Source: a virus | DNA length: 61,888 bases | Reading direction: 5' to 3' (one strand) | IMG/VR virus record: IMGVR_UViG_3300029675_000009 | Span: 1 to 61,888 of that record | In this document: positions 11,006-37,156 of the stretch, piece after piece | Position numbering within the stretch: position 1 is the stretch's first letter | Layout: the number at the start of each line of letters is the position of its first letter | Program-made: the position numbers and the translations under genes | The notes under the pieces: generated by a model | The model's input: only the letters and a program-made list of their open reading frames with translations | The model's database searches: none | Told to the model about the DNA's origin: nothing

Positions 11006-11009
11006 CGAC

Positions 11010-11735: not shown

Positions 11736-11749
11736 TAAATAAAAAGATC

Positions 11750-12722: not shown

Positions 12723-12777
12723 GGATATTAATATTAGAGTGTGTTTTTCATGGTATTAGATTTGGGTTAGAATGATT

Positions 12778-12808: not shown

Positions 12809-12811
12809 TTA

Positions 12812-12888: not shown

Positions 12889-12962
12889 ACAACAAATAAC
12901 AATCATGGATTTCGGTAACGACATTCCGGATTACGGTCCGGACGATTTTGACAATTACGATT

Positions 12963-13076
12963 ATGAATGACATTTTTCAAAGCCTGTTATTATCCTTCGG
13001 GGTAATAACGTTCATATTCGCTATCCTAGCGATAATTTTTATTGTATTAATCTTGATAGACGACAAGTACAAATGA
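12963..13076 (+). CDS. Possible 37-aa single-TM peptide
   Basis: The ATG-started ORF reads MNDIFQSLLLSFGVITFIFAILAIIFIVLILIDDKYK. Its stop overlaps ATG 13073. Confidence 0.3.
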   Translation: MNDIFQSLLLSFGVITFIFAILAIIFIVLILIDDKYK

Positions 13077-13423
13077 GGAATATCGAATCACAGACCCAGC
13101 AAGCTTGCGTCAGATACTTCCGTCTCCAATACCCGAGATACGCCGGATGCTTCTTTAGCGTCCCGAACGGAGGACGGAGGGACACGGTAACCGGGGCGAT
13201 ACTGAAAGCGGAAGGGGCATTGGCCGGGGTCGCCGATCTGTTCCTGTCAGTCCCGAATAACGTCCATCACGGTCTGTACGTGGAAATGAAGACAAGAAAA
13301 GGCCGGCAACAGGACAGCCAGAAGGCATTCCAGAAGGCGGTAGAGGCTCAAGGATACAGATATGAGATATGCCGATCGCTGGACGATTTCATCGCGCTTA
13401 TAAAAGACTACTTGAATGGCTAA
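13073..13423 (+). CDS. VRR-NUC domain nuclease
   Basis: 116 aa. The PD-(D/E)xK pattern is GVADLFL...GLYVEMKTRKGRQQDSQ. Confidence 0.8.
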   Translation: MRNIESQTQQACVRYFRLQYPRYAGCFFSVPNGGRRDTVTGAILKAEGALAGVADLFLSVPNNVHHGLYVEMKTRKGRQQDSQKAFQKAVEAQGYRYEICRSLDDFIALIKDYLNG

Positions 13424-13568
13424 GAAACCTACCAAGCAGCCCGAGCGTATCAGATGCGCCGATTGCGTGCACGGCAAGCCTCACAAGGGTCTGGCCGTAT
13501 GGTGCGAGATACTGAACACCGGAAGGGTAGCGAACTCCTTCCGGTATTGTGACAACTATAAACGATAA
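13416..13568 (+). CDS. Possible small Cys-rich protein (50 aa)
   Basis: The ATG-started ORF reads MAKKPTKQPERIRCADCVHGKPHKGLAVWCEILNTGRVANSFRYCDNYKR, overlaps the previous gene by 8 nt and is below the cutoff. Confidence 0.35.
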   Translation: MAKKPTKQPERIRCADCVHGKPHKGLAVWCEILNTGRVANSFRYCDNYKR

Positions 13569-13573
13569 CTTAT

Positions 13574-13762
13574 ATGAGAACGATCAAAGCGAACACGAAG
13601 GCAAACGGGGATATACTCCCGGAGCCTCAATTCAAGAGGATACCCGTAAGGGTTGACAAGAACACGATCATCCTCGTAAGGGAGGGGTTGAACGTGGAAG
13701 AGCATCTGAAAAGATTCAAGGACAAGGATAACACGCCTCCGGGATATATCCCATGGTTCTAA
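13574..13762 (+). CDS. Hypothetical protein
   Basis: ORF track, 62 aa. Confidence 0.45.
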   Translation: MRTIKANTKANGDILPEPQFKRIPVRVDKNTIILVREGLNVEEHLKRFKDKDNTPPGYIPWF

Positions 13763-13773
13763 AAAAACTTCAA

Positions 13774-13980
13774 TTTGTTTGGCATTTTTAATTTGAGTTG
13801 TATCTTTGCGGTGATTCAAGACCAAGGAATCACTACATAGTAAACTTGTATGCGGCATTTTTTATGTCGTTACTACAGCTATACCTGCAAAGATATAAGC
13901 CGTTGGTTTCCCTGTTGGCTGCATCAGTTTATCTAATGTAGTGTTCCTTGGTCGGAGTTGGGAGCCAGCGGCTTTCTTTA
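13774..13980 (+). promoter_or_regulatory. Promoter plus structured leader, cassette 1 (P1 long-range helix, P2 terminator-like helix)
   Basis: TTTG is at 13778-13781 and TATCTTTG at 13801-13808. P1 pairs 13820-13838 with 13936-13953. P2 pairs 13897-13911 with 13960-13974 and is followed by a U-rich tract. Confidence 0.6.
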
Positions 13981-14001
13981 TATAACTCAAATTTCATCAA
14001 A

Positions 14002-14232
14002 ATGACCAAGGAACATGAAATTGCGAGTGTAACGAACAACAGTAATTGCACAACCACGTCAGCTCACGAAACGAGCATCTTCTCATGGCGCACAATCGCC
14101 AAGCTATTAACCTTCATATCATCCGGATTGCTCGAATGCGATAACCGGGATGATGTTATAGGCTATGTAAAGGTTCTCATCTTATTAATGACAGCTTTCA
14201 TATTAGCAGGAATGGAAGGAGGTGCGTTATGA
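14002..14232 (+). CDS. Small C-terminally TM-anchored protein (paralog of 22552..22770)
   Basis: ORF 13948..14232, with the likely start at ATG 14002 (MTKEHE). It shares FSWR..AK...G..EC..DD.GYVK.LILL..AF..AGME.GGA with the paralog. Confidence 0.6.
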   Translation: MTKEHEIASVTNNSNCTTTSAHETSIFSWRTIAKLLTFISSGLLECDNRDDVIGYVKVLILLMTAFILAGMEGGAL

Positions 14233-14486
14233 ATACGCTTACCCAACGTCAGCAAACCATCCGTATCAACCGCCTATCCAAGGAGAACGACCAGCTCGCC
14301 AAGGAACTTGAGCACGTGAGGAACCAACTCAAATGGTCACGCATCACGTCATCGCAAGAGACGGAGCTAAAGAACTCATGTTTCTTCTTCATGATGTCCA
14401 AAGGGCTATTCACCGAATGGCACGAGTGGCACGACAGGAGGATAACTGAGAGGTTGATGGACGAGATCAAGAGGACTATCAAATAG
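14229..14486 (+). CDS. Hypothetical coiled-coil protein
   Basis: ORF track, 85 aa. ATGA overlap with the upstream gene. Confidence 0.55.
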   Translation: MNTLTQRQQTIRINRLSKENDQLAKELEHVRNQLKWSRITSSQETELKNSCFFFMMSKGLFTEWHEWHDRRITERLMDEIKRTIK

Positions 14487-14601
14487 CCCTACCCTACTCA
14501 CGTATTAAGATTTTAAAAGCCCCGGTTCCGGCCGGGGAGTATATTGTATTGTCTAAAAAAATAAAATCATATAGAAATGGTACATTTAAAAAGAAATAAG
14601 C

Positions 14602-15390
14602 ATGGGACGAAATAGAAGGAACGGTCTTGACTATTTCCCTTTTGATGTTGACCTATTCCAAGACATTCGCATCAGAAAGTTGATCAAGTATCAAAGTGGT
14701 AAAGCTATAACAGTATATGCTCTCCTGCTATGTATTATCTACAAGGATGGGTACTACGTGAGGTGGGACAAAGAGTTGCCTTTCATTATATCGGAGCAGA
14801 CCGGGTTTGAAGAGGCGTATATACTGGAGGTGATTAATAGCTGCTTGAAACTGGGATTATTTAATAATGAATTGTATGCGTCAGACGGAATTTTGACTTC
14901 AAAAGGAATACAGGAAAGATATAAAAAGATATGTGATTTGTGTCGAAGAAATAGTGAAATCTCCGAGTTTTCCCTAATTTCTTCAGAAGATAATGCTATT
15001 TCTTCAGAAGAAAAGCATATAAACTCCGAAGAAACGGCTATAAACTCCGCAAAAAGTACACAAAGTAAAGAAAAGAAAAGTAAAGAAAAAGAAATATTAA
15101 AGAAAGAACCCCCTAAAGGGGGTGAGAAAGAAAAAATGAAAGTCGAGAATGAGGAGTTGACGGACGAGTTCAAGAACTTCTTGGATTGGGTCGACAAAGA
15201 GACCCCATGCTTGAAGAAAATCCAACGTCAAATCACGCAAAAAGAGTACTACAAGATGAAAGAGAAGTATAACAAGAAGCAGATAACGGACGTGCTTACG
15301 AAAATAGACAACTACAAGGACGCTCCTAAGAAATACACATCCGTATATCGTACCTTCCTAGATTGGGCGAGAAAGGATTATGGTGGATAA
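14602..15390 (+). CDS. Replication initiation protein candidate (DUF4373 / Lin1244-like N-terminal domain)
   Basis: The N terminus GLDYFPFDVDLFQDIRIRKL...YALLLCIIYKDGYY resembles DUF4373. The gene lies directly upstream of and overlaps dnaB. Confidence 0.65.
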   Translation: MGRNRRNGLDYFPFDVDLFQDIRIRKLIKYQSGKAITVYALLLCIIYKDGYYVRWDKELPFIISEQTGFEEAYILEVINSCLKLGLFNNELYASDGILTSKGIQERYKKICDLCRRNSEISEFSLISSEDNAISSEEKHINSEETAINSAKSTQSKEKKSKEKEILKKEPPKGGEKEKMKVENEELTDEFKNFLDWVDKETPCLKKIQRQITQKEYYKMKEKYNKKQITDVLTKIDNYKDAPKKYTSVYRTFLDWARKDYGG

Positions 15391-16729
15391 CAGGGTAATG
15401 CCTAACGACATCGAGGCCGAGAGACTTGTGTTAGGCACGATAATGACGGAAAGAAACGCTCTTGACGAGGTGAGGGACATATTGACCCCATCATGCTTCT
15501 ACGACCCGTTCAACAAGTCCATATACGAGGCGATAACAAGGATTTCCGACAGGGGGGAGAGGGCTGACATGGTGACGGTAGCGAACGAGTTGATGAAATC
15601 AAGCGATAAGCCGGACATGTTCAAGCTAAGCCAGATATCATCATGCCTCACCTTCGACATCTACCAGCACGCCGCCTTGCTTCACGACAAGGAAAAGAGA
15701 AGGAGGTTCATAGAGATCGGGAACGAGCTTATATCGAGGGCTTATTCCGAGTCTGACGACATAGCTGACACGCTGACGGATACGGAGGAGAAATTGAAAA
15801 GCCTTTTCCAATCGTCAAGCGATAGCGTGTCCACGTTAAGTGACGCGATAAAGGAGGTATCAAACCAAATGTCGTTGAACGCTACCGACGGGAAGAAAAT
15901 GACCGGAACACCGACAGGGTTCAACGACATAGACAAGAGAAGCGGAGGTCTTCAAAAGTCAGACCTTATCGTGATAGCGGCGGACACATCGTCCGGAAAG
16001 ACATCGTTAGCCGTGGCTTTATCATTGTCCGCGGCGAAACACGGTGACGGGGTCGCCTTCTACTCCATGGAGATGAAGAAGGAGCAGATAGCCGCCCGCA
16101 TGATCTCGATAGAATCCGGAGTCCCGGCAAACGAGATCATGTACTCCCGCCTGCTACCAGAACAATTCAACATGATAGACATCGGGATAGGAAAGATCTA
16201 CGATAAGCCTGTTTATTTTGATGACAGGAGCACTTCTAACATAGACACGATACTTTCATCCATCCGTACGATGAAACTCAAATACGGTATATCTGGGGCG
16301 ATAGTGGATTACTTGCAAATATTGTCCGTGAATATGAGGGGAAGCAACACGGAGCAACAGATGGGAGAAGCGGCAAGGCGTTTGAAGAACCTAGCGAAAG
16401 ACCTTGATATTTGGATCATCGCACTATCGCAACTAAACAGGGATCAAATAAACCCAGTCCCGTCATTGGCGAGGTTGAGAGCCAGCGGACAGATAGCGGA
16501 GGCCGCAGACGTGGTAATGCTCATATACCGTCCGGAACTTTACGGGAAGTATTACTCTGACCCGTTCCAGAATTATCCGACTGAAGGAACGGCTATGATT
16601 GACATAGCGAAGGGAAGGAACATAGGCCTAGCCAAGTTCATCGTGAACTTTGACAAGAGGACAACTCACTTCACGGAATACGGAGATATGCCCGTGTTTA
16701 ACAGGCAAGATGAAGATGAACCATTTTAA
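15380..16729 (+). CDS. dnaB: Replicative DNA helicase (DnaB family)
   Basis: 449 aa. The N-terminal segment PNDIEAERLVLGTIM is DnaB-like. Walker A is AADTSSGKTS, and the RecA-like C-terminal domain contains IIALSQLNR. Confidence 0.9.
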   Translation: MVDNRVMPNDIEAERLVLGTIMTERNALDEVRDILTPSCFYDPFNKSIYEAITRISDRGERADMVTVANELMKSSDKPDMFKLSQISSCLTFDIYQHAALLHDKEKRRRFIEIGNELISRAYSESDDIADTLTDTEEKLKSLFQSSSDSVSTLSDAIKEVSNQMSLNATDGKKMTGTPTGFNDIDKRSGGLQKSDLIVIAADTSSGKTSLAVALSLSAAKHGDGVAFYSMEMKKEQIAARMISIESGVPANEIMYSRLLPEQFNMIDIGIGKIYDKPVYFDDRSTSNIDTILSSIRTMKLKYGISGAIVDYLQILSVNMRGSNTEQQMGEAARRLKNLAKDLDIWIIALSQLNRDQINPVPSLARLRASGQIAEAADVVMLIYRPELYGKYYSDPFQNYPTEGTAMIDIAKGRNIGLAKFIVNFDKRTTHFTEYGDMPVFNRQDEDEPF

Positions 16730-16739
16730 GAACAAGATC

Positions 16740-16976
16740 ATGGAAATAACAGACAGATTAAGGAACACCCCTACCGGGTTGATCGTGTTGGTAGGAGACA
16801 TGAAAATTGTCGTGGAAAAGTACAGGCCGTACTACAACGGGCAGAACAAGATCCCGTGCAGGGGATGCGTCTTCCGGGACGAGGGAGCAAGGTTTTGCGA
16901 ATACTCATCCGCTTGCATGGCCCATCTGAGGCCGGATCACGAGAGCGTGGTGTTCGCTAAAACAAACAAGGTTTAA
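16740..16976 (+). CDS. Hypothetical Cys-containing protein
   Basis: Internal ATG (MEITDRL...) of ORF 16650..16976, 11 nt after the dnaB stop. Confidence 0.5.
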   Translation: MEITDRLRNTPTGLIVLVGDMKIVVEKYRPYYNGQNKIPCRGCVFRDEGARFCEYSSACMAHLRPDHESVVFAKTNKV

Positions 16977-17038
16977 TCATTCCTCATAGTTGAAAGCTGC
17001 ATTCAGCTATGATGAGAGTAATCAAAATCAAAATAATC

Positions 17039-17545
17039 ATGAAACAATACAACGATTGGGAAGAGATTGACAAGGACACGAACGGCCTTGTCACCTCGCT
17101 AACCTACATGGTACTTTTCGTGAACGACCAAGTGTATAATTACACGATATCGCTCATGGAAGCCATAAGGAATAGCGAGCACTACAGGCATAACGCCAAA
17201 CGGACGGCCAACGCTATCGAAAGGGAGATAGACGCTTATAACACCAACATCTTCCGGATAGCCAAGGCTAACAAGGAGGCGTTAGCGGAGATAACGCAAA
17301 GCATGGAGGAGGACGTGCAGCCTCATATAGACCGGTATTACTACACGATCAGCCAGATATTGCTGGATCACGGGGTATCGGGCATGACGAACCGGATCGC
17401 CTCGCTGTCATCAACGATAAACATGCTGGCTCAGATGTCGAGGATCACGATAAGCGATTTCGGGGACAGGATGCGTAAGATAGTCCCGTTGGCCTACAAT
17501 CCCCTAGGCCTATCTGGCACTGGACAAGGTAGAGTACCTGAGTGA
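17039..17545 (+). CDS. Hypothetical protein (3' end possibly frameshifted into 17508..17687)
   Basis: ORF 17009..17545, with the likely start at ATG 17039 (MKQYND). Confidence 0.5.
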   Translation: MKQYNDWEEIDKDTNGLVTSLTYMVLFVNDQVYNYTISLMEAIRNSEHYRHNAKRTANAIEREIDAYNTNIFRIAKANKEALAEITQSMEEDVQPHIDRYYYTISQILLDHGVSGMTNRIASLSSTINMLAQMSRITISDFGDRMRKIVPLAYNPLGLSGTGQGRVPE

Positions 17546-17784
17546 CCGGTTATCAAGTGAGGTCACAGGAAAGGACGTGAGAATAAACTTAAATGAACAG
17601 CCCGGGATCGTGAAGGCGTTCACGGCGATAACGAATGCGATACTTGATCCGAGGGTGTTCAATAAGGCTTTTGAGAAAGCCGGGTGATTAACTATTTAAT
17701 CCAAATTGACATGAAATCGAAAATAAGAAAAACCGGGGAGATCGTTGATGTTTATTGATATGATAAATTCAAAGATAAAAAGAT

Positions 17785-18366
17785 ATGAATGAAATTATAA
17801 ATATACAAGGAACAACTTATGCTGTCACTCCTGATTTAAAAATAGTCAATGCTAGAACTGGCAAAGAAAACAGAAGTGTTAGCGTGTCTGTATTAATGGA
17901 TGATGGCATTAGGCATTGTATCAGACGTGAGCGTCTGATCTATGCGGCAAAGAATAATATCAATCCACTATCTATACCTAAAGGTATTATAATCAATAAA
18001 AACGGGGATGGGATGGATCGGTATGAGTTTTACAAAAAGCACAAGAAAGGAAGTATTAAGTGTAGATATCCGGCTGATGTTAAGGAGTACAGAAAGCTTA
18101 TTGATTGCATGGAGAAAAATACTCCTCCGTTGTTTATGTTTGATTATCTAAAGGAGATAGAAAGTTACTGCAAGTATCACTTGAGAGTATCGAATGAAGA
18201 AGCGTATGAGTTAGCAATAAGTGCCATTAGTGCAACAATTGATAATACAGTAAATGAGGTATTTCCGCAATCAATAATAGGATATATACAAGGTACTGCA
18301 AAAAAGATGCTTGCCGCAAGAATAAAATATAATAAAACTTTCATTACAAATTTGCTATATGAATAA
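17785..18366 (+). CDS. Hypothetical protein (AT-rich module)
   Basis: ORF track, 193 aa. Confidence 0.55.
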   Translation: MNEIINIQGTTYAVTPDLKIVNARTGKENRSVSVSVLMDDGIRHCIRRERLIYAAKNNINPLSIPKGIIINKNGDGMDRYEFYKKHKKGSIKCRYPADVKEYRKLIDCMEKNTPPLFMFDYLKEIESYCKYHLRVSNEEAYELAISAISATIDNTVNEVFPQSIIGYIQGTAKKMLAARIKYNKTFITNLLYE

Positions 18367-18934
18367 GGACGATTTATTTACTTGTTTTAAAATAGACGAT
18401 TTGAAAGATCTCCCTGACGCTGTATTGAATTTATTAGAAGGTGATTTGGATACTCGCAATAAAGTTTATGCAGAGTTGATACAACTGAACAATTACGACA
18501 TGTCTTTTGATTGGTTTCAAGGATTGTATGAAAACGAATTGTCGGAACGTAAGCAAAAAAAACAGGATTTCACCCCTAATTCTATTGGCGTGTTGTGCTC
18601 GGAATTGACAGGGCAATTGGGTTCTATACATGAACCTACAGCAGGTAACGGCTCTATGATTATTGCTGACTGGTGGCAACGTTGTAGCAAAAAAATGCCA
18701 TGGGAGCATTTCCCTTCACAAAATATGGTGACATGCTGGGAGTTGTCTGCAAGGTCAATACCTATATTGCTTCTTAATATGTCAATACGCGGCATAATGG
18801 GGTATGTTTATCATGGAGATGTATTGACCAAAGATATAAAGCAGAAATACGTACTTCTGAATAGAATTGACGATACTTTAGGTTTTTCTGAGATAATTAA
18901 AGTTGATATTAATACTAAAATAGTAGAAGTATGA
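18359..18934 (+). CDS. N6-adenine methyltransferase-like fragment (SAM-binding motif only)
   Basis: HEPTAGNGSM resembles motif I (D/E-P-x-x-G-x-G). CWELSARSIPILLLNMSIRGI resembles the HsdM-type E....A..N..L.G segment. No NPPY/F motif is present before the stop. Confidence 0.5.
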   Translation: MNKDDLFTCFKIDDLKDLPDAVLNLLEGDLDTRNKVYAELIQLNNYDMSFDWFQGLYENELSERKQKKQDFTPNSIGVLCSELTGQLGSIHEPTAGNGSMIIADWWQRCSKKMPWEHFPSQNMVTCWELSARSIPILLLNMSIRGIMGYVYHGDVLTKDIKQKYVLLNRIDDTLGFSEIIKVDINTKIVEV

Positions 18935-19890
18935 AATTAAATGATGTATATAACGAATGGCTGCCTGTTAAAAGAAGGCAAGTTAAGGGATCAACGCTAA
19001 GCTGTTATCAGCTCATATATCTGAATATGCTTGCTCCCCGGTTTGGTAATACAGACGTAGAAAATATGGGGAAAAAGGTTGTTACAGCATTTATCTATGA
19101 ACTTCTTGATTCTGGGACTAAGTCGAAAAAGTACTGTTCGGATATTCTGATCGTCATAAAGATGCTTATTCGCTTTGCCGGTGACGAATTGAATATCGAT
19201 GTCCCCGACACCACATGGAAGGTTATTTGGCCAACCAATAATAAAGTTGTCACACCCAAATTAGAGCGCTATACGCCTGAAGAATACCGTAAAATAGTGA
19301 GTTATGTTATGGATAATCCATCCCCCCGCAATTTAGGCATTTTATTGACTATATGTACCGGTATGAGGATAGGCGAAGTTTGTGCATTGCAATGGCATGA
19401 TGTAGATCTTGTTGGCAAGGTAATTCACGTTAATAAAACGATAGAACGCATATATCTCCCTGAGAATATCGGTACCGACAAGAAAAAGACAGTGGTAGAG
19501 ATAGGATCTCCTAAAACTAATTCATCAGACAGGTACATACCAATTCTTAAGGACATTTTCCCTATTGTTAAGAAGTTCTCAACCGTATGCAACCCCGAGT
19601 ATTATGTCTGTTCCTGCTCTGAGGGGTTTGTAGAACCACGCACTTTTCGTGCCTATTACAGGACATTTATTCTTGAAAAAGTAAAGTTGGATCATTGCAT
19701 TAAATTTCATGGGCTACGTCACACTTTCGCAAGTACACTGATAGAAAACAAAGTCGATGTAAAAACAGTCTCTACTATACTTGGACACTCGAATATAAGT
19801 ACAACTCTTAATGTGTATACCCATCCATCGGATGAAGCAAAAAAAGAAGCTGTTAATGGCTTAAAAAAAATGTTCAGAAATAATTCATAA
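18931..19890 (+). CDS. Second tyrosine recombinase (XerC/D / phage-integrase family)
   Basis: 319 aa. An SAM-like N-terminal domain is followed by GMRIGEVCALQWHDVDL (R), HGLRHTFAS (HxxR) and GHSNISTTLNVYTH (H..Y). Confidence 0.85.
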   Translation: MKLNDVYNEWLPVKRRQVKGSTLSCYQLIYLNMLAPRFGNTDVENMGKKVVTAFIYELLDSGTKSKKYCSDILIVIKMLIRFAGDELNIDVPDTTWKVIWPTNNKVVTPKLERYTPEEYRKIVSYVMDNPSPRNLGILLTICTGMRIGEVCALQWHDVDLVGKVIHVNKTIERIYLPENIGTDKKKTVVEIGSPKTNSSDRYIPILKDIFPIVKKFSTVCNPEYYVCSCSEGFVEPRTFRAYYRTFILEKVKLDHCIKFHGLRHTFASTLIENKVDVKTVSTILGHSNISTTLNVYTHPSDEAKKEAVNGLKKMFRNNS

Positions 19891-20025
19891 TATAAAAAAA
19901 GTATGAAAACATACAGTTATGGAATAAAAGAAAATTTCTAGGTGACAGCAGGTGAAGAACTAATAATCTATCCGGGGCGTTCCTTTCATGGGATGCCCCT
20001 TTAAATCAACAAGAGAAAAATTAGC

Positions 20026-20172
20026 ATGAGAAATAAAGAACTAATCGCTCTATTACAAGAGCAAGACCCGGAAGCGGAGGTCATTATAGAAACATCCGAT
20101 AACTATACCTACGATATAGTGGACGTTACGTTTGAGGAACAAATTGAGTGCGTGGTTATTCATGAGGGATAG
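20026..20172 (+). CDS. Possible small acidic protein (48 aa)
   Basis: The ATG-started ORF reads MRNKELIALLQEQDPEAEVIIETSDNYTYDIVDVTFEEQIECVVIHEG and is below the cutoff. Confidence 0.35.
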   Translation: MRNKELIALLQEQDPEAEVIIETSDNYTYDIVDVTFEEQIECVVIHEG

Positions 20173-20174
20173 AT

Positions 20175-20486
20175 ATGGAAGAGGAAATAAAAAAATGTCC
20201 CGAGTTTCCCTTTTTCGGCGCATCTTATCCAGACGCAATATGCTGTGACGGCTATCTATGGGATCTTGACTCATATGATAGCGAGGTTGGGGGATTGACC
20301 ATAGGCGGGGATGTCCCCTGCCCTTTCTGCAAGACCGATGAGTTTATAGAGTACGATCCTTTTGGTTTATTATACGTAGGGGATGACAAGGAGAAAACTC
20401 GTGAATGGTACTTATCTTACATTGATAAATTGAGGGAAAGATATGGCTCATTGGGCAGACCGGAAGGAACTTTACATGAGCTGTGA
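20175..20486 (+). CDS. Hypothetical Cys-rich protein
   Basis: ORF track, 103 aa. Confidence 0.55.
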   Translation: MEEEIKKCPEFPFFGASYPDAICCDGYLWDLDSYDSEVGGLTIGGDVPCPFCKTDEFIEYDPFGLLYVGDDKEKTREWYLSYIDKLRERYGSLGRPEGTLHEL

Positions 20487-20551
20487 GTTTAAAGATTTCA
20501 CCCCGAGAAAAGGTTTTAAATGTAAAGAATATTTTAACAACGAATTATAAT

Positions 20552-21169
20552 ATGAATCAAATTTGCACGAATAAATCACAATCATCCCGGCTATTAGAGG
20601 CCGGGGTGAGACCGGAGACGGCGGACATGTCGTATCACTTTACGAGAAGCAGAGTGCCTGCGCTGGAGTGGGAACTACAAACGAAACCGCCTACATTGAG
20701 AGGTAGGTTTTGGACACCGCAAAGAATAGCTAAACTTGCAAAGCCTTTTCACAAACATTCTGATGGTACACACATGACGGGGGAAGAAGTGTTTGACCAT
20801 CTATGGGGTAAGGATATCCCGGCTTGGTCTCTATCCAAGCTGATAGAGATGTTACCTACAAATATTAATGGGTATATTTTGAGTGTAGACTTCGAAAATA
20901 AAGGGGTGGAATATTCAATGACTAATTTTTGCGATAGACTTGACTATCTTTATATTAAAGGTTTCGAAAACCTATTTGATGGTATAATTGATTGCATCGA
21001 ATGGCTTATCAAGGAAGGATACCTTGACAATAAATTATGCGGCGATTGCCGACTTATCGAGTATGAAGACGCTAACGGGGAAGATTGGTGTGCCTTCCAT
21101 CAAAAGCCGGTAAGGTGCGATAGCAAGGCTTGTAAGGATATTTTAGAGAAAGGAGTACAAAATGCGTGA
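20552..21169 (+). CDS. Hypothetical protein
   Basis: ORF 20483..21169 (GTG start). The first ATG is at 20552 (MNQICT). Confidence 0.55.
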   Translation: MNQICTNKSQSSRLLEAGVRPETADMSYHFTRSRVPALEWELQTKPPTLRGRFWTPQRIAKLAKPFHKHSDGTHMTGEEVFDHLWGKDIPAWSLSKLIEMLPTNINGYILSVDFENKGVEYSMTNFCDRLDYLYIKGFENLFDGIIDCIEWLIKEGYLDNKLCGDCRLIEYEDANGEDWCAFHQKPVRCDSKACKDILEKGVQNA

Positions 21170-21584
21170 GATTAAATTCAGGGGGAAAGACATTGAGAAC
21201 GATAATCTGTGGCGTTACGGGTCATTGATAACCTATCCGAGCGGATGCACCTCGATAATAGAGTTTGACAAGTTTGGGAACGAGCTAAACTATGACGTGG
21301 ATCTTGACACCGTAGGCCAGTTCACAGGCCTAAAAGACAAGAGCGGAAAGGAGATTTACGAGGGGGACATTATCAGCGTGAATGGCAAATATCCTAAATT
21401 GATTAGGTACATAGATGAATGGGCGAGTTATTGCTTGGCTAATCTTACAGATTTGGACTGTGATCTTAAAACTCGTTATTGGCAGCAAGTTAGTCCTTGC
21501 TGGTGGACTGATTATAAAAGAGAAATTAAAGTAATAGGTAATGTTTATGATAATCTAGAATTGGTAAAAGGAGGTGAAAAATGA
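21162..21584 (+). CDS. YopX-family protein
   Basis: The pattern is MREIKFRGK...VGQFTGLKDKSGKEIYEGDII...IGNVYDN. Confidence 0.75.
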   Translation: MREIKFRGKDIENDNLWRYGSLITYPSGCTSIIEFDKFGNELNYDVDLDTVGQFTGLKDKSGKEIYEGDIISVNGKYPKLIRYIDEWASYCLANLTDLDCDLKTRYWQQVSPCWWTDYKREIKVIGNVYDNLELVKGGEK

Positions 21585-22024
21585 AAGCAATAACCATCAA
21601 ACAACCGTGGGCCTCCTTGATAGTCCACGGTATCAAAGACATTGAGAATCGTACTTGGAGAACTAACTATCGTGGACGTGTGCTTATTCATGCTGCCGGT
21701 TCTCATGGTAAAAAGTTTAGCGTCGATTTAACTGATGCCCAAATGAAGGCTGCATTTGGTACGATTGCTAAAGAAACAATGTTTGGTAATCTGCCTTTTG
21801 GTACAATCATTGGCAGCGTAGAGATTGTGGATTGCGTAGTAAATCATTCATCCATTTGGGCAGAGAAAACAGAAAACTACACAGTCGGCATGAATCCTAA
21901 ACTGCATGAGAATATTACAGGCAGAAAGGTTGTCTATAATTGGGTATTGGCAAACCCTGTAATGTTTGACAAGCCGATAACAGGCGTGAAAGGCAAGCTT
22001 TCGTTTTGGGAATTTAAACAATAA
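21581..22024 (+). CDS. ASCH domain protein
   Basis: MKAITIKQPWASLIVHGIKDIENRTW is a typical ASCH/PUA-like N terminus. Confidence 0.75.
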   Translation: MKAITIKQPWASLIVHGIKDIENRTWRTNYRGRVLIHAAGSHGKKFSVDLTDAQMKAAFGTIAKETMFGNLPFGTIIGSVEIVDCVVNHSSIWAEKTENYTVGMNPKLHENITGRKVVYNWVLANPVMFDKPITGVKGKLSFWEFKQ

Positions 22025-22032
22025 GTATTTCA

Positions 22033-22329
22033 ATGGAAAGAAATATTGATAAGAGACAGACGGTAGAAGAAGCGGCTCATTTCTTCGCTGAAAGCAGGAG
22101 TAGCGGTAGTGCATTCCCGGCGTATTATCAGGGATTTATAGCAGGTGCCGAATGGGGAATGGCAGAAGCTATTAATGCTCACTGGAAAAGTTGTCCAAAC
22201 CTCTCTAAAGACAATGATCGAATGTGCAATCAAATGAATGATTGCAATCAGAATTGCGAGTACATGAGGTCTTTTATTAGACTATTAAGAGGAATAGTAT
22301 TAACCGAGCCTTCCCGTGAAGGCTCTTAA
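22033..22329 (+). CDS. Hypothetical protein
   Basis: ORF track, 98 aa. Confidence 0.5.
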   Translation: MERNIDKRQTVEEAAHFFAESRSSGSAFPAYYQGFIAGAEWGMAEAINAHWKSCPNLSKDNDRMCNQMNDCNQNCEYMRSFIRLLRGIVLTEPSREGS

Positions 22330-30695: not shown

Positions 30696-31090
30696 CCCGC
30701 AATAACATCCGACATATCTGCCTCTCTCCCATTCTCCACCTTGCTCATCCCGGCCACAATCCGGATCATTTGCTCACGATCATTTGCATTGATCGGATCA
30801 TCGGCAGGGATACCGGCACAATCAGATACGGCCTTGATATAGGCATCTGTATTATTCTCGTTTTCCGGCGCCCAGCGACCTATCATCTTGCGGATCGTGT
30901 CCAGCTTATAGTTCCGGTAATAGTTAGACAGTATCTTGAAGATCGCCCGGTAGCCATACGCCATCGTCTCAAACTGTTTGAACGACTTGTCCTTGCTCGG
31001 ACGTATCTCACCTTGGAACAAGTCTCCGTTGATCCGGATGTTTCCCGGGTTGTTGTTCCGATACCCACGAGGTAAATTATTTTTCCCCAT
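30680..31090 (-). CDS. Putative peptidoglycan hydrolase / endolysin (RNNNPGNIR motif family)
   Basis: 136 aa. The motif is GYRNNNPGNIR, and the gene lies between the holin and a membrane protein. The family assignment is from memory (phi6 P5-like). Confidence 0.5.
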   Translation of the reverse strand: MGKNNLPRGYRNNNPGNIRINGDLFQGEIRPSKDKSFKQFETMAYGYRAIFKILSNYYRNYKLDTIRKMIGRWAPENENNTDAYIKAVSDCAGIPADDPINANDREQMIRIVAGMSKVENGREADMSDVIAGWNLL

Positions 31091-31093
31091 ATT

Positions 31094-31570
31094 TTACTCT
31101 CCTTTCTTCTTTTTATTCATGGCATTGGATAAAGCGTTTGTCAAAGCGTCCTCCAAAACCTTTTGCGTTACAACCTTACCGATCATGTCGGCTGTCTTAC
31201 TCGCCTGCCTCCTTTGTTTGGCGTCAGCCTTCTCCCAGATAGACCGAACCTCCGTTATCAAGATAAATACGGTCACTATCGAGGATACGACCGGGACATT
31301 GGTCAAGAAAGGCAGATGGATAAATTCCCAGAACCGGCACACGTAGCAAACCGAGTCTATCCCGCACGCTATACATACGCTACCAGCGTAAAGTATGAAC
31401 TTACTGACCGTCCTACGCATGCCATACGAATTACGCTCCTCGCCCCTCAATTTAGCCTTGTAATAACCCGAGGCGAAATCCCACCCCATCGCCACCATAA
31501 CGATGAACATCTCAAACACGACTACAGTCAGTAGCTCCCTCATACTGCAAATCATTTTAAAAAATTCCAT
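31094..31570 (-). CDS. Holin candidate
   Basis: 158 aa with 3-4 hydrophobic segments and a charged C-terminal tail, immediately upstream of the lysin. Confidence 0.6.
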   Translation of the reverse strand: MEFFKMICSMRELLTVVVFEMFIVMVAMGWDFASGYYKAKLRGEERNSYGMRRTVSKFILYAGSVCIACGIDSVCYVCRFWEFIHLPFLTNVPVVSSIVTVFILITEVRSIWEKADAKQRRQASKTADMIGKVVTQKVLEDALTNALSNAMNKKKKGE

Positions 31571-31595
31571 TCTTCCGATCCTTTTTTTTATTTAG

Positions 31596-31988
31596 TTATA
31601 AAACCACTATGCTCTCCTCCTCTCTCGCCGCCTCCCACTCGGCGAAATCGCTATCCACACGGTCTTTCAACGCCTTCCTCTCGTTAAGGAACGTCTTATA
31701 AGACTCCACGTATGACAAGTCCAATATGCCTAGCTGGGCGGCGTTGTAGTCGTTCAGCTTCTTTTGCTCCACGTCCTTGTCCCATAGGGCGTTGATACAG
31801 GCCTCCAATATCTTGTTGGCAGTTAACGTGGCCCATATCCTGACCTCGTTGTAACTATAGGAGATCACGGGGGCCATATCGTCACCCATCTCCCTTGTCT
31901 CCTCTCTAACGTCCCACCGGTACAGGTAGGAACCGTCACCGTCCCGCTCTATTTTAGGCGGCATTGTGTCGCTCCATGATCGCTTCAT
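31596..31988 (-). CDS. Hypothetical protein
   Basis: ORF track, 130 aa. It overlaps the RT 3' end by 35 nt. Confidence 0.5.
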   Translation of the reverse strand: MKRSWSDTMPPKIERDGDGSYLYRWDVREETREMGDDMAPVISYSYNEVRIWATLTANKILEACINALWDKDVEQKKLNDYNAAQLGILDLSYVESYKTFLNERKALKDRVDSDFAEWEAAREEESIVVL

Positions 31989-32991
31989 AAAACTCTGGTT
32001 TTAAAATTTTCTTAGCTAAATGCTTGCTATCGCTATCATATATCCAGCCCAGCCAACCGGCTAGACCTGCCTTGTATTCCGTTAAGGATATATTCGGGAC
32101 TTTATTCAATCTAGCCGCCGCACGACATAGATTTTGCTTAGTCCTCTTCCTTATCCGTATATGCTCCTTATAGAAAACGAACCCCACGAAATCTATACCA
32201 CGGCCGCTTTTATCCGATCTTCTCTCAGCGATCTTAAATATCTGGTAATTCCCTTTCAGCTCCAACTTCAACACGGCCAATCTATCGATAAGCCACGGAA
32301 GTAATACGTTTCTCAAGAAACACTTATCATGATGGAAAAAAGTCATGTCATCCGCGTATCTGATATAATGCCTTATATCTATAATCTCCTTTATCTCGTG
32401 ATCCAGATAGGCGAGATAAAGATTCGCAAGATATTGGCTAAGATAGTTCCCGATCGGAACGCCGGGAGCGGAATCAATGATCTCATCCAACAACATAAGC
32501 AAGCGATCGTCCTTGATCTTCTTCCGAGCGATGCCTTTCAACACCTCATGGTCTATTGACGGATAGAATTTGCGGATATCAACCTTGAGGCAATAGACGG
32601 ATTCACGATCGGACAAAGCCCGTCTTGTCCTCTTATACGCCTCCGTTATTCCTCTTCCCTTGATACATGATGTCGTATCAGCCGTGAACACGGAAACCCA
32701 TATAGGTTCCATGACGTTCATTATGGCATGATGCAATATCCTGTCCGGATAATAAGGGAGCTTGAAGATGATCCTTTCTTTTGGCTCATAGATGGTATCA
32801 GTCCGGTACTTGGAAGTCTTGAACGTGCCATCCAGCAGAGACCTTAGCAAACGGCTTAGATTACCTTCTTTGTCCTTGTCAAACAACCTTATGCCGTATG
32901 AATCCTTCTTTCCCCTTCGGGCTTTCATGTCCGCAAGTATCAAGTTGTCCATATTCGCTATCTTATCAAATAAATTCCCTATTCTCTTCAT
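31954..32991 (-). CDS. DGR reverse transcriptase
   Basis: ORF 31954..33048, with the likely start at ATG 32991 (MKRIGNLF). Motifs are PIGNYLSQ ([ILV]GxxxSQ) and YIRYADDMTFF (YxDD). The TR lies immediately upstream. Confidence 0.9.
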   Translation of the reverse strand: MKRIGNLFDKIANMDNLILADMKARRGKKDSYGIRLFDKDKEGNLSRLLRSLLDGTFKTSKYRTDTIYEPKERIIFKLPYYPDRILHHAIMNVMEPIWVSVFTADTTSCIKGRGITEAYKRTRRALSDRESVYCLKVDIRKFYPSIDHEVLKGIARKKIKDDRLLMLLDEIIDSAPGVPIGNYLSQYLANLYLAYLDHEIKEIIDIRHYIRYADDMTFFHHDKCFLRNVLLPWLIDRLAVLKLELKGNYQIFKIAERRSDKSGRGIDFVGFVFYKEHIRIRKRTKQNLCRAAARLNKVPNISLTEYKAGLAGWLGWIYDSDSKHLAKKILKPEFYEAIMERHNAA

Positions 32992-33128
32992 TTTATTGTC
33001 ATTAATTTGCTTTTTATCATAGGGAGTCTTCGGTTTCCCTACCAACACCCTTTATATGGGGAGACTTTTTTCGCCAAGAGGCGAGGCCACCATCCCTGTT
33101 TGTTCTCTAAATATCTTTTCCCCTCTCT

Positions 33129-33245
33129 AAAAGTATAGGCGTGAACCGATGTTACGATTCGCATCGGAAGGCGCATTATTCGTATTCACGTTAGCGAGGC
33201 CTGCATTCGACCTGTTGTCCGCGTTACCGCCAACCAGCACCACCT
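33129..33245 (-). other. DGR template repeat (TR)
   Basis: It aligns without gaps to 33692..33808. All 16 mismatches fall at TR adenines on the coding strand. It lies 137 nt upstream of the RT start. Confidence 0.9.
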
Positions 33246-33268
33246 AGGGATGATCGACCCTTATTACG

Positions 33269-33622
33269 TCATTCGAGATAATACCTGTTCCCGGAGGCTC
33301 GCATCGTTACTTTCCTAGGGAACTTGTCCATCTCCTTTATCTTTCCAAGAACGTACTTGATCTCTTGGGAGTTCGTAAAGAATTTCTTGGCATCACTATC
33401 CTTATCCTCTAGATTCTCCTTGATCATGACAAGCGCCCTGTCTTTCCCGAACTTGGTGGACACGCCATCCATGTAATCAATTACCCAGAACGTGAGATTC
33501 GTCAACTTCTGTTGGGTGATCTCCGGACAATTAAAATGCCTTGAGTTCTTATCCCTTGGGATATTCAAGAACGACAAGCTGCCGTCATCTTTATTCTTTT
33601 CTTCTTCCATTTTTATCCTCAT
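33269..33622 (-). CDS. DGR accessory-position ORF (not recognisably Avd-like)
   Basis: 117 aa between VR and TR, where Avd normally sits. The sequence does not resemble the helical-bundle Avd proteins I recall. Confidence 0.55.
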   Translation of the reverse strand: MRIKMEEEKNKDDGSLSFLNIPRDKNSRHFNCPEITQQKLTNLTFWVIDYMDGVSTKFGKDRALVMIKENLEDKDSDAKKFFTNSQEIKYVLGKIKEMDKFPRKVTMRASGNRYYLE

Positions 33623-33662
33623 TAAACGTTATACAAAAAAATTCCCGACGTGAGACGTGCGG

Positions 33663-35819
33663 CTATGCCGACGTTTTACGATATTCGGGGAAAAAGCAAA
33701 GGCGCGAACCGAAGTAACGATACGCAGCGGAAGGCGCATTATACGTATACACGTGAGCGAGGCCCGCAGTCGACCCGTCGCCCGCGTAACCGCCAACCAG
33801 CACCACCTGCATGCGGTTAGCCGATGTGTAGGTGTAGTAGTAGTCGCACCAGTAGGTAGAACTACTACCGCCGATCTCCGTAGCTACGATATCACCATCC
33901 TCACCTAGGAGCATCTTCTTGGCATAACCATTGGTACGGCAGATGTTGCCTTTCTTGTTATAGCCTGTGTAAGATGTATCGCTGAAGTTTGACGGGTCAT
34001 CGGTAGTCCATAAGATAGACAATCCGGAATCACCCGTGGTGACTTGTATGTTGGCCCCATCGGTGTATTTCCAGATATGGCCGAACGGATTCTCTATACC
34101 ACGATACCTGTTAGCCATCAATGTGGCATGAGTACCGCCGGAAGCGTTCTTCACCACATATGCCTTCTCTCCCGAGCCGTTCCCGAACTCGTTGGTATAG
34201 CCGCATGGGATAAGGGGGTTGGCGTTGTTGAAGTTAGCCCAATCCGTCATTTGCGTCGGTCCCGGACCTAAGCCACCTTGTGCGAAACCGTTAGCGTCCT
34301 TCTGGGCGTTGAAAGGTTTCTGGCTGTCCAGCGTGGCGTACTCGACGGCGAATAACCAGAACAGGATCTTGTGGGCGTTATAGGTGTACATTTCCCAGCC
34401 GCTGCCACGTTTCCTAGCGGCTTGCCGGAATTGGTCTCGGGTGAGGTTGGTGACGGGGCGGCCGAGTAGGGAACGGTAGGTATCATCCCATTCAGCGGTG
34501 TTGTCACCACCTCTAAAATTAGTTGAATTAGGATCACTTAATTTACTAGCTCCAGCCGCCGAACATAATAAATTATCGGTTCTATACATTCTGGCTTCAT
34601 ATGTTGAGATATAGAACTTATCTACATGTTTATACCCAGGTAATGGAATTTCGGACAACATCTTCCTAAATTTAGTGCCATTAAAATACAATTTATACCA
34701 ATGTTCAGGTATCTCTGTCATAACGGCATAATCCAAATAGCTTCCACCCCATGAAAGCTCATTATCCAAATATTCTTTAACTCCACCATCTCTATCCAAA
34801 AGACACCTTCTCATCTTACTCTGCACCGGCAACTCCCGATGTAGTTGCATATTACCCACACGCTTCCCGTCCGGGCTTGACGATGCCATGTCCCACTCTA
34901 CACCGTAGGCGTACCGCTCCTCTATATCCGGGATGTCCTCCCAAGCGGGGGTCCACTCGGTGGAGATGTCACCATATTCAAGTTTAATCTTATGGATGGT
35001 GGAAGTTGATGTGCCAGTTTTAGGAGAACTAAATACAACCATATGTGTATTATCAGCTACTGCATCTCCGATATTAGTAATCCATTTAAAAGTCTTACTG
35101 GCCTTCCCATTCACAAAGTCAGCCTTACTGAACTGAGCCATAGAACCTACTGCACCAGTAGAGTTATATATAGTGAACATTTCCTTATCATCACCCAATT
35201 CTCCAAAAATAGTCAATGTTACTTGTGTTCCTTTAGATATCGGTTCAGTTAGCCAATAATCAGCGATATTGTAATTCGAGTTACTCACCTCCTTCCCTGA
35301 TCCCAGCAACAGGTTCCTGCCGTACACGGGCAGCTTGCGGTACTTGCCATCAGCCATCAGAGACTTATCCTTGTCCCCCTTGGTCTCCAGCGTTATCGAC
35401 ACGTCCGGATCTTCGTTTTGGGCCTTGTCCGGCGTTATGGTTATCTGGCCGTTAGACGGGGTGGATGTGACAACGGGCTTTAACTTATTAACGTCCGTCC
35501 TTAGACCGGTGACCAGATTCCGGATATCCGTATCGTCGTAATGGTCACGCAAGTTAGGCGTGGTTATGGTTCCCTCAGCGGAGGTTATCTCCAAGACGTA
35601 TTCCGTGTCCGTGTTAGTCTTTATCCTCACCTTGATGTCTTGCATCATCAATGGAAGCTCGGCGTACGTATGGATACCGTCCGAGAACTTCATGTTTAAA
35701 TTGCCGTTCGCCAACCGCTCGAAAAGCCATAGCGACGGCGGGTATATGGTGCTGTCAGCCGTCCACTCGGCGGTGGACTGCTCTATCTGTTGGTATACGT
35801 AAGCCCCTGTCTTGCTCAT
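33663..35819 (-). CDS. DGR target: tail fibre / receptor-binding protein with a C-terminal VR (CLec/FGE-like fold expected)
   Basis: 718 aa. The N terminus STAEWTADSTIYPPSLWLFERLANGNLNMKFSDGIHTYAELP resembles a fibre/Mtd-type N-domain. The C terminus GGYAGDGSTAGLAHVYTYNAPSAAYRYFGSRLCF is encoded by the VR. Confidence 0.85.
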   Translation of the reverse strand: MSKTGAYVYQQIEQSTAEWTADSTIYPPSLWLFERLANGNLNMKFSDGIHTYAELPLMMQDIKVRIKTNTDTEYVLEITSAEGTITTPNLRDHYDDTDIRNLVTGLRTDVNKLKPVVTSTPSNGQITITPDKAQNEDPDVSITLETKGDKDKSLMADGKYRKLPVYGRNLLLGSGKEVSNSNYNIADYWLTEPISKGTQVTLTIFGELGDDKEMFTIYNSTGAVGSMAQFSKADFVNGKASKTFKWITNIGDAVADNTHMVVFSSPKTGTSTSTIHKIKLEYGDISTEWTPAWEDIPDIEERYAYGVEWDMASSSPDGKRVGNMQLHRELPVQSKMRRCLLDRDGGVKEYLDNELSWGGSYLDYAVMTEIPEHWYKLYFNGTKFRKMLSEIPLPGYKHVDKFYISTYEARMYRTDNLLCSAAGASKLSDPNSTNFRGGDNTAEWDDTYRSLLGRPVTNLTRDQFRQAARKRGSGWEMYTYNAHKILFWLFAVEYATLDSQKPFNAQKDANGFAQGGLGPGPTQMTDWANFNNANPLIPCGYTNEFGNGSGEKAYVVKNASGGTHATLMANRYRGIENPFGHIWKYTDGANIQVTTGDSGLSILWTTDDPSNFSDTSYTGYNKKGNICRTNGYAKKMLLGEDGDIVATEIGGSSSTYWCDYYYTYTSANRMQVVLVGGYAGDGSTAGLAHVYTYNAPSAAYRYFGSRLCFFPEYRKTSA
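33692..33808 (-). other. DGR variable repeat (VR)
   Basis: It lies at the 3' end of the 718-aa gene and ends 26 nt before the stop codon. Confidence 0.9.
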
Positions 35820-37156
35820 GATAATATTCCTCCCTTTATTATTTTTACCGAATCATTGAAATAATTAGCCCCTGTCAAGTAAATGTTCCCCGGTAACGCG
35901 GCACCGGAAGACTCCTCCCATATGGCCTTACCCTCCACTATGTCGTGGAGCTTGTAGAACGTAACGTCTCCGGGAGACTCCCTTAGATAGACCTCACCGC
36001 CTATAGGGTAGCTCTTGGTCTCGCCGCCCTCCTCGTAGGTCACGTCGTTAGCCCCCGGGACATGGTCGATCTCCCTTGTCTTGTATACGCCGACTACCGA
36101 TCCGTCCTGTCCTTGCGGGACGGTAAGATCTAATTCCGCCAATGGAACCCCTTCCTCGGTCTCTCCCTTCTCGGTTATCGTGGCTTGGGCCGCCGTTCCC
36201 GGGAGACCGGTCGTCACCTTCCCGATCGATATCTTGGGAGAGAATCCCCTAGGGCCTCTCTGCAACACGAAGTTCATCCTGTATACGGGGTTGCCGGATG
36301 CGTCCGTGCCCCCGTCGGACAACGATACGGAAGGATACGTGCCCGCCGTTATGGTGCCTATGGAGAATTGCGGGGTCTTCCCGGTGAAGCCTCTCATGCC
36401 GGACACGTCCACGAGGTAATCGTAGCCCGTGGATGTCCTGAGATATAGCTTGCCGGTATCCTCCTCCTCCACGCTGCCCGTGTTGATGATGACGAATTTA
36501 CCCTCCGGGACGTTAGACTTGTCCGCCTCCATGACCGATACTGACTTATAGACCCTGTAGATCGTGAACGCCTCCGGTTTCAGTATCCTGTCCGTCTTGA
36601 TATAGGTCCCGGTAGCGTAATCCCACGTGTAGACATGGAAGTCATCGCCGATATAGCCCGGGTGGTCAGACACCGACTTGGCGTTCTCAGCCGCCGTGTT
36701 CGCTTTCTCGGTTGCCGCATCCGCCCTCTCCAAGGCGTGCCTCACGTCGTTCTCGAACTGGGTCTTCAAGGCGTTCACCTCGCTCACGATAGCGTTCATC
36801 CTCTCACGCACATCGGCGGCGGCTTCCGTGGCCGGCCTCTTCAAGTCGGCGAGCGGTATGAGGTTCTGCCACATCCCGTCCTCGTAACGCCACTGTATGT
36901 AATCGGCGGTGACCTGCAAGACGATCTGTTTCCCGTCAACGCCCCTCAACAAGGATATGGCCACACGTACGAGATCGTAGGCCGATCCGGATTGCCTGAA
37001 CACCGGCAAGGAAGATATACCTTGCAGGCTATCGGCCTCCTCGTACTGTCCCGGGTCCTTAGACGTGGTCAGCAACAGGCCGTTGACCGCCGACGCTATC
37101 TTCTGGATGTCCTCGGGGGTTACCTCGGTGCCCGATGATAGGATGATGCTTTCCAT
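35816..37156 (-). CDS. Tail fibre-associated structural protein (coiled-coil centre)
   Basis: ORF track, 446 aa, between the tip protein and the DGR fibre. Confidence 0.5.
   Translation of the reverse strand: MESIILSSGTEVTPEDIQKIASAVNGLLLTTSKDPGQYEEADSLQGISSLPVFRQSGSAYDLVRVAISLLRGVDGKQIVLQVTADYIQWRYEDGMWQNLIPLADLKRPATEAAADVRERMNAIVSEVNALKTQFENDVRHALERADAATEKANTAAENAKSVSDHPGYIGDDFHVYTWDYATGTYIKTDRILKPEAFTIYRVYKSVSVMEADKSNVPEGKFVIINTGSVEEEDTGKLYLRTSTGYDYLVDVSGMRGFTGKTPQFSIGTITAGTYPSVSLSDGGTDASGNPVYRMNFVLQRGPRGFSPKISIGKVTTGLPGTAAQATITEKGETEEGVPLAELDLTVPQGQDGSVVGVYKTREIDHVPGANDVTYEEGGETKSYPIGGEVYLRESPGDVTFYKLHDIVEGKAIWEESSGAALPGNIYLTGANYFNDSVKIIKGGILS

Follow-up and report, generated by a model that had tools for sequence, protein, structure and literature searches.

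Here, we report a diversity-generating retroelement (DGR) on the minus strand of a viral DNA of 61,888 nucleotides (IMG/VR virus record IMGVR_UViG_3300029675_000009, positions 1 to 61,888; this whole stretch is called the window below). It is very probably a functional-looking DGR carried by a complete temperate Bacteroides-type phage, in which it rewrites the tip of a tail fibre. As a DGR it is one more example of established biology; what sets it apart is a helper protein other than Avd. Tail-fibre DGRs are common and well described in gut Bacteroidota phages (PMC6199706, PMC8143477, PMC12629997), and 43% of inducible species carry a DGR (PMC12629997).

A first-pass annotation of the window, made from the letters and their open reading frames (ORFs), had called a complete DGR in this region. 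That call was upheld by a DGR-type reverse transcriptase (RT), by mismatches between the template repeat (TR) and the variable repeat (VR) that occur at adenines only, and by an invariant TR accompanied by hypervariable VRs in related phages. ORF coordinates also confirmed the canonical order on the minus strand, namely, the target gene (33663-35819; 718 aa), a 117-aa ORF (33269-33622), the TR, and the RT ORF (31954-33048). All features below lie on the minus strand unless a plus sign is given.

Repeats, reverse transcriptase and target

The TR (33129-33245; 117 nt, 28 adenines) sits in a non-coding 277-nt gap between the 117-aa ORF and the RT start, and the VR (33692-33808; 117 nt) lies at the 3′ end of the target gene. 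Re-alignment reproduced the gap-free match over 117 nt with 16 mismatches that had been described. The two repeats are identical at 101 of 117 positions, and all 16 differences fall on TR adenines, at exactly the plus-strand coordinates listed in the first-pass annotation and at no non-adenine site (with 28 A in 117 nt, the chance of 16/16 mismatches landing on A is P = 1.5e-12). Directly beyond the 117 nt, likeness between TR and VR collapses on both sides. The VR peptide (GGYAGDGSTAGLAHVYTYNAPSAAYRYFGSRLCF) is present in the translation of the target ORF, the peptides quoted earlier are all correct, and the VR does end 26 nt before the stop codon (33663-33665). The proposal that AAY codons are the diversified ones was borne out for 8 of the 16 mismatches and failed for the other 8, which fall in GAC, AGG, GCA, GAT, ATC, TCA, CTA, and TAC codons. 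The window was also searched for a second, remote VR, and none was found (the next-best match covers 41 of 89 non-A positions).

The RT (31954-32991) is 345 aa long when read from the ATG at 32991, within an ORF that opens at GTG 33048. It matched RVT_1 in Pfam (E = 8e-13) and phrog_1423 in PHROGs (E = 6e-105), and its best PDB match was the Bordetella RT, bRT (8ub7; E = 3.8e-33), with group II intron RTs next at 2e-14. Both motifs reported in the first pass, PIGNYLSQ (of the form [ILV]GxxxSQ) and YADD, are in the translation, as GVPIGNYLSQ and IRYADDM. The DGR signature is [I/V/L]GxxxSQ rather than QGxxxSP, and Arg74 and Ile181 of bRT promote adenine mutagenesis (PMC7826257); in the PDB alignment, the window RT retains equivalents of R74 and I181. 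With bRT as its closest solved relative and with IGxxxSQ and YADD present, the RT is of the DGR type. The nearest phage RTs in GenBank belong to crAss-like phages (45-55% identity), including crAssphage LMMB, whose DGR has been published (PMC7290462).

The target (33663-35819) is a tail fibre or tail protein of 718 aa that matched phrog_5302 (“tail protein”; E = 7.9e-109), and it stands at the end of the tail module, after tail genes of 1,257 aa (tape-measure-like), 1,456 aa, and 446 aa. In BFVD, it matched a crAss-like “tail fiber protein” (E = 1e-24, a low-confidence model). These matches to phage tail-protein families agree with the first-pass description of a tail fibre with a diversified C terminus. 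The C-terminal part (33666-34931; aa 297-718) is a conserved module, found elsewhere as a stand-alone protein of ~440 aa or on other N termini. Among IMG/VR loci, the N-terminal 296 aa range from 42 to 100% identity and the C-terminal module from 80 to 97%; the module is 91-92% identical to gp044 of the crAss-like phage cr50_1, 43-47% identical over their full length to the 441- and 443-aa targets of two more distant loci (L064 and L065), and 26% identical (E = 6e-12) to the C terminus of the target of Hankyphage, a Bacteroides phage.

A C-type lectin domain has been reported in the Hankyphage target (PMC6199706). Homology to that target, together with a BFVD match that its depositor named after Treponema denticola TvpA (E = 1.3e-7, a low-confidence model), lends indirect support to a C-type lectin fold in the window target.

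Divergence among related loci

IMG/VR was searched with the first 52 nt of the TR, every A being replaced by N, and 62 loci were found, which were rescanned with the whole repeat to give 38 TR copies and 54 VR copies. The TR copies are nearly invariant: 34 of 38 are identical to the window TR over 117/117 positions, and the remaining 4 each carry one adenine difference from the consensus. The 54 VR copies, by comparison, make up 47 distinct sequences, with 7-21 (mostly 13-21) adenine-site changes and 0-3 changes elsewhere. Pairs of loci with 0 differences over the 600 nt upstream of the VR show 5-18 differences within it. For 26 near-identical pairs (≤2/600 flank differences), per-site divergence reached 49% at the adenine sites of the VR, as against 0.8% at its non-adenine sites and 0.08% in the flank. 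The same pattern was seen in 38 more distant homologous Bacteroidales loci, each with its own TR (11-22 adenine-site mismatches, ≤2 others). An invariant TR combined with adenine-confined VR divergence is the signature of repeated mutagenic homing, and the DGR has been recently active in this lineage.

Smaller features of the same data concern the TR copies and the non-adenine sites. The variant TR copies (L009, L036, L044, and L052) carry A21C (twice), A82T, and A82C, a pattern in line with homing or gene conversion that occasionally reaches the TR itself. In the VRs of L005-L062 and of L064-L109, the few TR/VR differences outside adenines are for the most part T to G (17/25 in one set and 7/11 in the other), and non-adenine VR sites diverge ~10 times faster than the flank (0.8% versus 0.08%).

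Some adenines give nearly fixed outcomes. TR position 44 (33202; VR 33765) is read as G in 47 of 48 VRs of the family, a synonymous change from GCA to GCG; because it is synonymous, selection at the protein level cannot explain the bias to G. In independent families whose TR has an A before GG at this position, the VR again has G in 10/11 cases, and TR adenines followed by G were read as G in the VR in 50/52 cases. Context-dependent misincorporation at A before G is possible, by analogy with the DGR of phage BPP-1, for which slippage has been proposed in AC/ACC contexts (PMC12875486).

The distribution of changes along the repeat divides the VR into two parts. Among the 48 distinct VRs, the variable TR-adenine positions span repeat positions 21-104, a hypervariable core at 33705-33788, and position 1 (A) is unchanged in every VR. 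The 3′ end (33692-33704; CGCCTTTGCTTTT, with the TR counterpart CGCCTATACTTTT) resembles an initiation of mutagenic homing (IMH) element. In 47 of 48 VRs, T stands at repeat position 110 and G at 112 (VR 33699 and 33697; TR 33136 and 33134). Across divergent families, the VR keeps its end (CGCCTTTGCTT, which encodes SRLCF), while the TR 3′ ends vary (CTATAC, CTAGGC, CAATGA, and CTATGC), and the L064 locus has a non-adenine TR/VR difference at the 3′ end of the repeat. Since positions 110 and 112 are fixed in 47/48 VRs and the VR end is conserved while TR ends vary, 2 of the 16 mismatches (33134 and 33136) are probably fixed IMH/IMH*-type differences that lie beyond the 3′ limit of information transfer and do not stem from mutagenesis.

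Just downstream, inverted repeats spanning the stop codon are followed by a run of seven T (33635-33674), a candidate for the DGR stem-loop, a terminator, or both. At this place, the majority of the family carries a far stronger, GC-rich hairpin with another sequence, and the sequence at 33635-33674 is retained in relatives that have no TR or RT (see below).

Accessory protein, template RNA and cassette

The accessory ORF (33269-33622; phrog_19665, function unknown) encodes 117 aa, with the second ATG, at 33610, as its likelier start. It is not an Avd homologue. Searches of Pfam and NCBIfam at E ≤ 0.01 gave no Avd or other four-helix-bundle family, and a PDB profile search at E ≤ 10 gave no Avd. 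Avd was considered as its identity and rejected, because the two have no sequence relationship and the 117-aa protein is predicted to have six strands and one long helix; only size and isoelectric point (pI) resemble. The family is mildly basic (pI 7.7-9.5) and has >400 members at ~70% identity, all unnamed (191 clusters at the 50%-cluster level). An AF2 model (pLDDT 84) is beta-rich, with the element order b-b-b-a-b-b, which is compatible with an oligonucleotide/oligosaccharide-binding (OB) fold. Top Foldseek matches included OB-fold MCM10, Teb1, SSB, TEBP, PriB, and AB5 B subunits among unrelated folds, all at E > 0.1 and TM ~0.3, and an OB-like nature of the predicted protein is only a lead. 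Weak, sub-threshold matches to a T. denticola “clustered lipoprotein” family were also seen (TIGR01781, E = 2.4e-5; PF09710, E = 7e-4).

The 117-aa ORF is linked to the DGR by its constant position, its loss together with TR and RT, its higher conservation, and its fusion to RTs. At every locus inspected, the gene sits between target and TR-RT (target-accessory-TR-RT), and a simple-pattern scan found a DGR-type RT start (MKR.GNL; MKRIGNL in the common form) 250-310 nt downstream of it in 34/44 loci. Across loci, the accessory protein is ~70% identical, the RT ~56%, and the target ~45%. In Hankyphage (p00), whose RT is 434 aa long, the same domain forms a C-terminal extension of the RT instead of a separate gene between VR and TR: RT residues 324-421 are homologous to accessory residues 10-109 (37% identity; E = 4e-14). 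All 6 representative matches longer than 430 aa likewise have RVT_1 at the N terminus and the accessory domain at the C terminus. The published catalogue of DGR accessory genes comprises Avd, HRDC, MSL, and CH1, and it notes C-terminal extensions without an explanation in ~20% of DGR RTs (PMC5758913). In the literature searched, no description of the present domain, nor of an OB-fold DGR accessory protein, was found.

The template RNA is structured. We aligned 27 non-redundant intergenic regions between the accessory gene and the RT and found four helices (P1 to P4). P1 joins the 14 nt directly upstream of the TR (5′ arm, 33246-33259) to a 3′ arm 31 nt downstream of it (33085-33097), with 13 pairs, of which 9 changed on both sides across the 27 sequences, and 93% of cells paired. 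Because P1 pairs both flanks of the TR, it closes the TR into a loop. The spacer that follows (33003-33088) belongs to Rfam RF03020 (RT-17 RNA; 43.4 bits in cmscan, above the gathering score of 40.4; E = 4e-6; model positions 1-95, full length). Its parts are the hairpin P2, a conserved A-run, and the helices P3 and P4, which surround a conserved internal loop (UGGUAGG...CCGAA), with covariation in P2, P3, and P4; this loop may resemble the AGUA/GAA loop-E (sarcin-ricin) motif. Over P1 to P4 together, both partners vary in 18 of 26 pairs, and 89.9% of cells are paired, a share that drops to 36-54% if partners are shifted by 1-3 columns; the observed covariation score was reached by 0 of 500 shuffles.

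RNA motifs of the “RT-n” series come from genome comparisons that listed them ahead of RT genes, and they are not known to have been given a defined mechanism. The motif is already in Rfam, and the TR-closing stem extends it: the first five bases of the RF03020 model are unpaired there and form here the end of a 13-bp covarying stem with sequence upstream of the TR, 150-200 nt away. In BPP-1, the spacer folds and so recruits bRT-Avd, an internal spacer adenosine primes the cDNA, and a motif at the avd 3′ end stops it (PMC12875486). By inference from that system, P1 and the A-run would be the obvious candidates for such roles here.

Accessory gene, TR, and RT come and go as a unit. At ~20 IMG/VR loci, a target with a diversified VR is followed directly by a gene that we call orf130, without the accessory gene, TR, or RT. 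The left junction falls after GTATAACG (~33627), just beyond the T-run, and the right junction just before the orf130 ATG at 31988; both are clean. Clean junctions and the absence of accessory gene, TR, and RT as one block identify these three as a 1.64-kb insertion/deletion. Contigs without the cassette (among them L001/L038 [cr50_1, NC_055868, 5977-8319], L004, L007, L010, L012, L020, L027, L032, L039, L043, and L062) keep the IMH-like end and the hairpin. Their orphan VRs may be left over from cassettes since lost, may have been imported by recombination, or may be diversified in trans. The orphan VR of cr50_1 differs from the window TR at 15 adenine sites and one G, and neither the 10-kb locus nor the IMG/VR copy of the contig yielded a TR cognate to this gp044 VR.

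The gene orf130 (31596-31988; phrog_11557, function unknown), whose start overlaps the RT end, marks the right boundary of the cassette. It was considered as a fourth DGR gene and rejected, because it stays beside the target in genomes without accessory gene, TR, and RT; it is a gene of the phage backbone and not a DGR component. Its homologues follow the RT in L064 and L065. In all cases, orf130 comes after the target module, either directly or past the inserted cassette, even in cr50_1 (59% identity). We speculate that it might work together with the receptor-binding module, for instance in chaperoning its assembly.

From these observations, we put forward a joint proposal, tentatively and with slightly more doubt than belief. 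The 117-aa protein would represent an undescribed beta-rich, possibly OB-like accessory class that replaces Avd in a large DGR lineage of Bacteroidota phages, encoded either by a separate gene between VR and TR or, as in the experimentally active Hankyphage DGR, as a C-terminal domain of the RT. The 1.64-kb accessory-TR-RT unit would be a gain/loss module, and it may also diversify the orphan VRs of cassette-less relatives (one crAss-like phage included) in trans when two phages share a cell.

Competing readings, known systems and the host phage

Mutagenic homing in this phage would proceed as follows. Transcription would yield an RNA that runs from the end of the accessory gene through the TR and the spacer; P1 would close the TR into a loop, and the spacer would fold as the RT-17 scaffold. 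The RT, probably with the 117-aa non-Avd protein, would copy the TR into cDNA and misincorporate opposite adenines. The cDNA would then replace VR repeat positions ~21-104 (33705-33788), anchored at the IMH-like 3′ end and the adjacent stem-loop, so that ~28 codons are rewritten at the tip of the tail fibre, near its C terminus, and phage binding is changed. From BPP-1 we infer that cDNA may be self-primed from the spacer, that the IMH-like end and stem-loop may have the roles given here, that the accessory protein may be required, and that host range may be affected.

Several points weigh against a functional DGR of this design. The searches did not confirm a C-type lectin fold for the target: for the C-terminal module, the AF2 model has a pLDDT of 58 (47-sequence alignment), Foldseek against PDB and a PDB profile search were empty, and Pfam at E ≤ 10 gave nothing relevant. 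The accessory model has no significant Foldseek match in PDB. With only 13 nt of homology 3′ of the last variable site, the assignment of 33692-33704 as IMH, made by analogy with BPP-1, is tentative. The inverted repeats at 33635-33674 fold no better here than shuffled sequence (z = −0.98). Some adenine sites are non-random, and a simple model does not account for position 44. Finally, the first-pass claim of past or ongoing mutagenic retrohoming stands as repeated, recent homing in the lineage (49% versus 0.08%); this is evidence on the lineage and not on this particular copy, which may still be active.

This last point leaves room for a decayed or dormant DGR, in which the adenine pattern records past homing and the copy no longer diversifies its target. 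Loss of function is evidently common in the lineage, as the ~20 related contigs that lost accessory gene, TR, and RT but keep diversified VRs attest, and the stem-loop after the VR is weak here. We consider dormancy quite unlikely, however, because RT, accessory ORF, TR, and spacer RNA are intact and 97-100% identical to copies in genomes that have differing VRs within identical flanks, and the catalytic YADD and the adenine-mutagenesis residues are present. A different doubt concerns the helper alone, in that the 117-aa ORF could be an ordinary phage gene beside an accessory-less DGR (the TR-RT core, architecture A of Wu et al.). About one quarter of catalogued DGRs have no accessory gene (PMC5758913), the ORF has no recognisable domain, and its neighbour orf130 proved to be a backbone gene. 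Unlike orf130, though, the 117-aa ORF is present or absent strictly together with TR and RT; the RT start that follows it in 34/44 loci, its greater conservation than RTs and targets, and the fusion of its domain to the RT C terminus in Hankyphage and six other representative clusters also make this reading unlikely.

The remaining possibility, that the RT is a group II intron, retron, or defence RT and the repeat a coincidental duplication, is almost certainly wrong. NCBIfam did return matches to group II RT/maturase, Drt3a, and retron St85, and the related RT of cr50_1 is labelled “retron-type” in GenBank. These matches are far below their cut-offs (97 bits versus 300, 69 versus 200, and 63 versus 235, respectively), and bRT leads the PDB matches by 19 orders of magnitude. 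The RT carries IGxxxSQ instead of QGxxxSP (PMC7826257). An RNA search of 31000-36500 (E ≤ 1) returned RT-17 and none of the group II intron or retron families, and ~85 related TR/VR pairs show adenine-only mismatches, unlike ordinary divergence. The check on membership in the intron and retron clades, which the first-pass annotation had named as decisive for its call, thus came out against them, and this reading was refuted by the tests run.

Among known systems, the DGR in the window most resembles parts of three. Hankyphage (Bacteroides phage p00, BK010646) infects a similar host and shares the order of target/VR, TR, and RT; its repeat, reported as 117 bp (PMC6199706), has the same length, its RT is homologous (32% identity), its spacer contains the GGTTTGGTAGG motif found in the window spacer, and its DGR is experimentally active (PMC12135933). 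It differs in being a Mu-like transposable phage of ~43 kb with a much larger target (VR at residues 2188-2225; PMC6199706), and it shares no nucleotide-level similarity with the window. The gap between its VR and TR holds a 64-aa ORF called “Avd” from its size and pI (PMC6199706, PMC12135933); this ORF was considered as the counterpart of the 117-aa ORF and rejected, as the two have no similarity.

BPP-1 (mtd-avd-TR-brt) has an identical gene order of target/VR, accessory gene, TR, and RT. The RTs are homologous (E = 3.8e-33), with R74, I181, and the SQ motif conserved, and both systems are adenine specific (~49% A-site divergence between related VRs here; ~50% misincorporation in BPP-1, PMC7826257). 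A structured TR-RT spacer, non-identical 3′ ends of VR and TR, and an inverted repeat after the VR are also common to both. Unlike BPP-1 Avd, the window accessory protein is predicted to be beta-rich rather than a four-helix bundle and has no sequence relationship to it. The IMH-like homology is much shorter here (13 nt) and lacks a (G/C)14 element, and the window spacer, unlike that of BPP-1, is Rfam RT-17 with a covarying stem that pairs the TR flanks.

The crAss-like DGRs (cr50_1 NC_055868, cr115_1, and crAssphage LMMB) have the nearest GenBank RTs, at 45-55%. In cr50_1, gp044 carries the target module with a diversified VR, and an orf130 homologue follows it. The DGR that cr50_1 itself encodes has a different TR/VR pair and a different gene order, and cr50_1 has no homologue of the 117-aa accessory protein.

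The host phage is a complete temperate gut Bacteroides-type phage. The window ends in an exact 158-bp direct terminal repeat (1-158 = 61731-61888), and it is therefore a complete phage genome, 61,730 bp long and either closed into a circle or redundant at its termini. The genome encodes two integrases, a DnaB-like helicase, a large terminase, a portal, a major head protein, and a tape-measure-like protein, and its lysis module adjoins the DGR. The replication module of Bacteroides phage BF1-TP2 matches positions 8362-22155 at 91% identity; outside this region, including the structural half, no close phage relative was found in GenBank. A scan of species-representative genomes with the TR pattern, made for host assignment, gave zero matches, and a sigma-70 promoter scan was uninformative (9 sites versus 7.9 expected). 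Two tyrosine-integrase-like genes (phrog_1) lie at 126-1526 (+) and 18931-19890 (+). ARAGORN called a tRNA-like gene at 12812-12888 (+) with a four-base anticodon (aaaa) and no amino acid assigned.

One invariant TR and 47 distinct VRs on near-identical backgrounds form a natural series from which a per-site substitution spectrum of mutagenic homing can be read, including near-deterministic synonymous outcomes. Avd-independent homing in the Hankyphage-type lineage had been suspected and not explained before; co-occurrence, co-loss, and RT fusion are genetic evidence for a non-Avd accessory domain in that lineage. The covarying stem between the TR flanks suggests, in a form open to testing, how the RT may be presented with its template RNA, and both the non-Avd accessory domain and the TR-closing stem merit follow-up.

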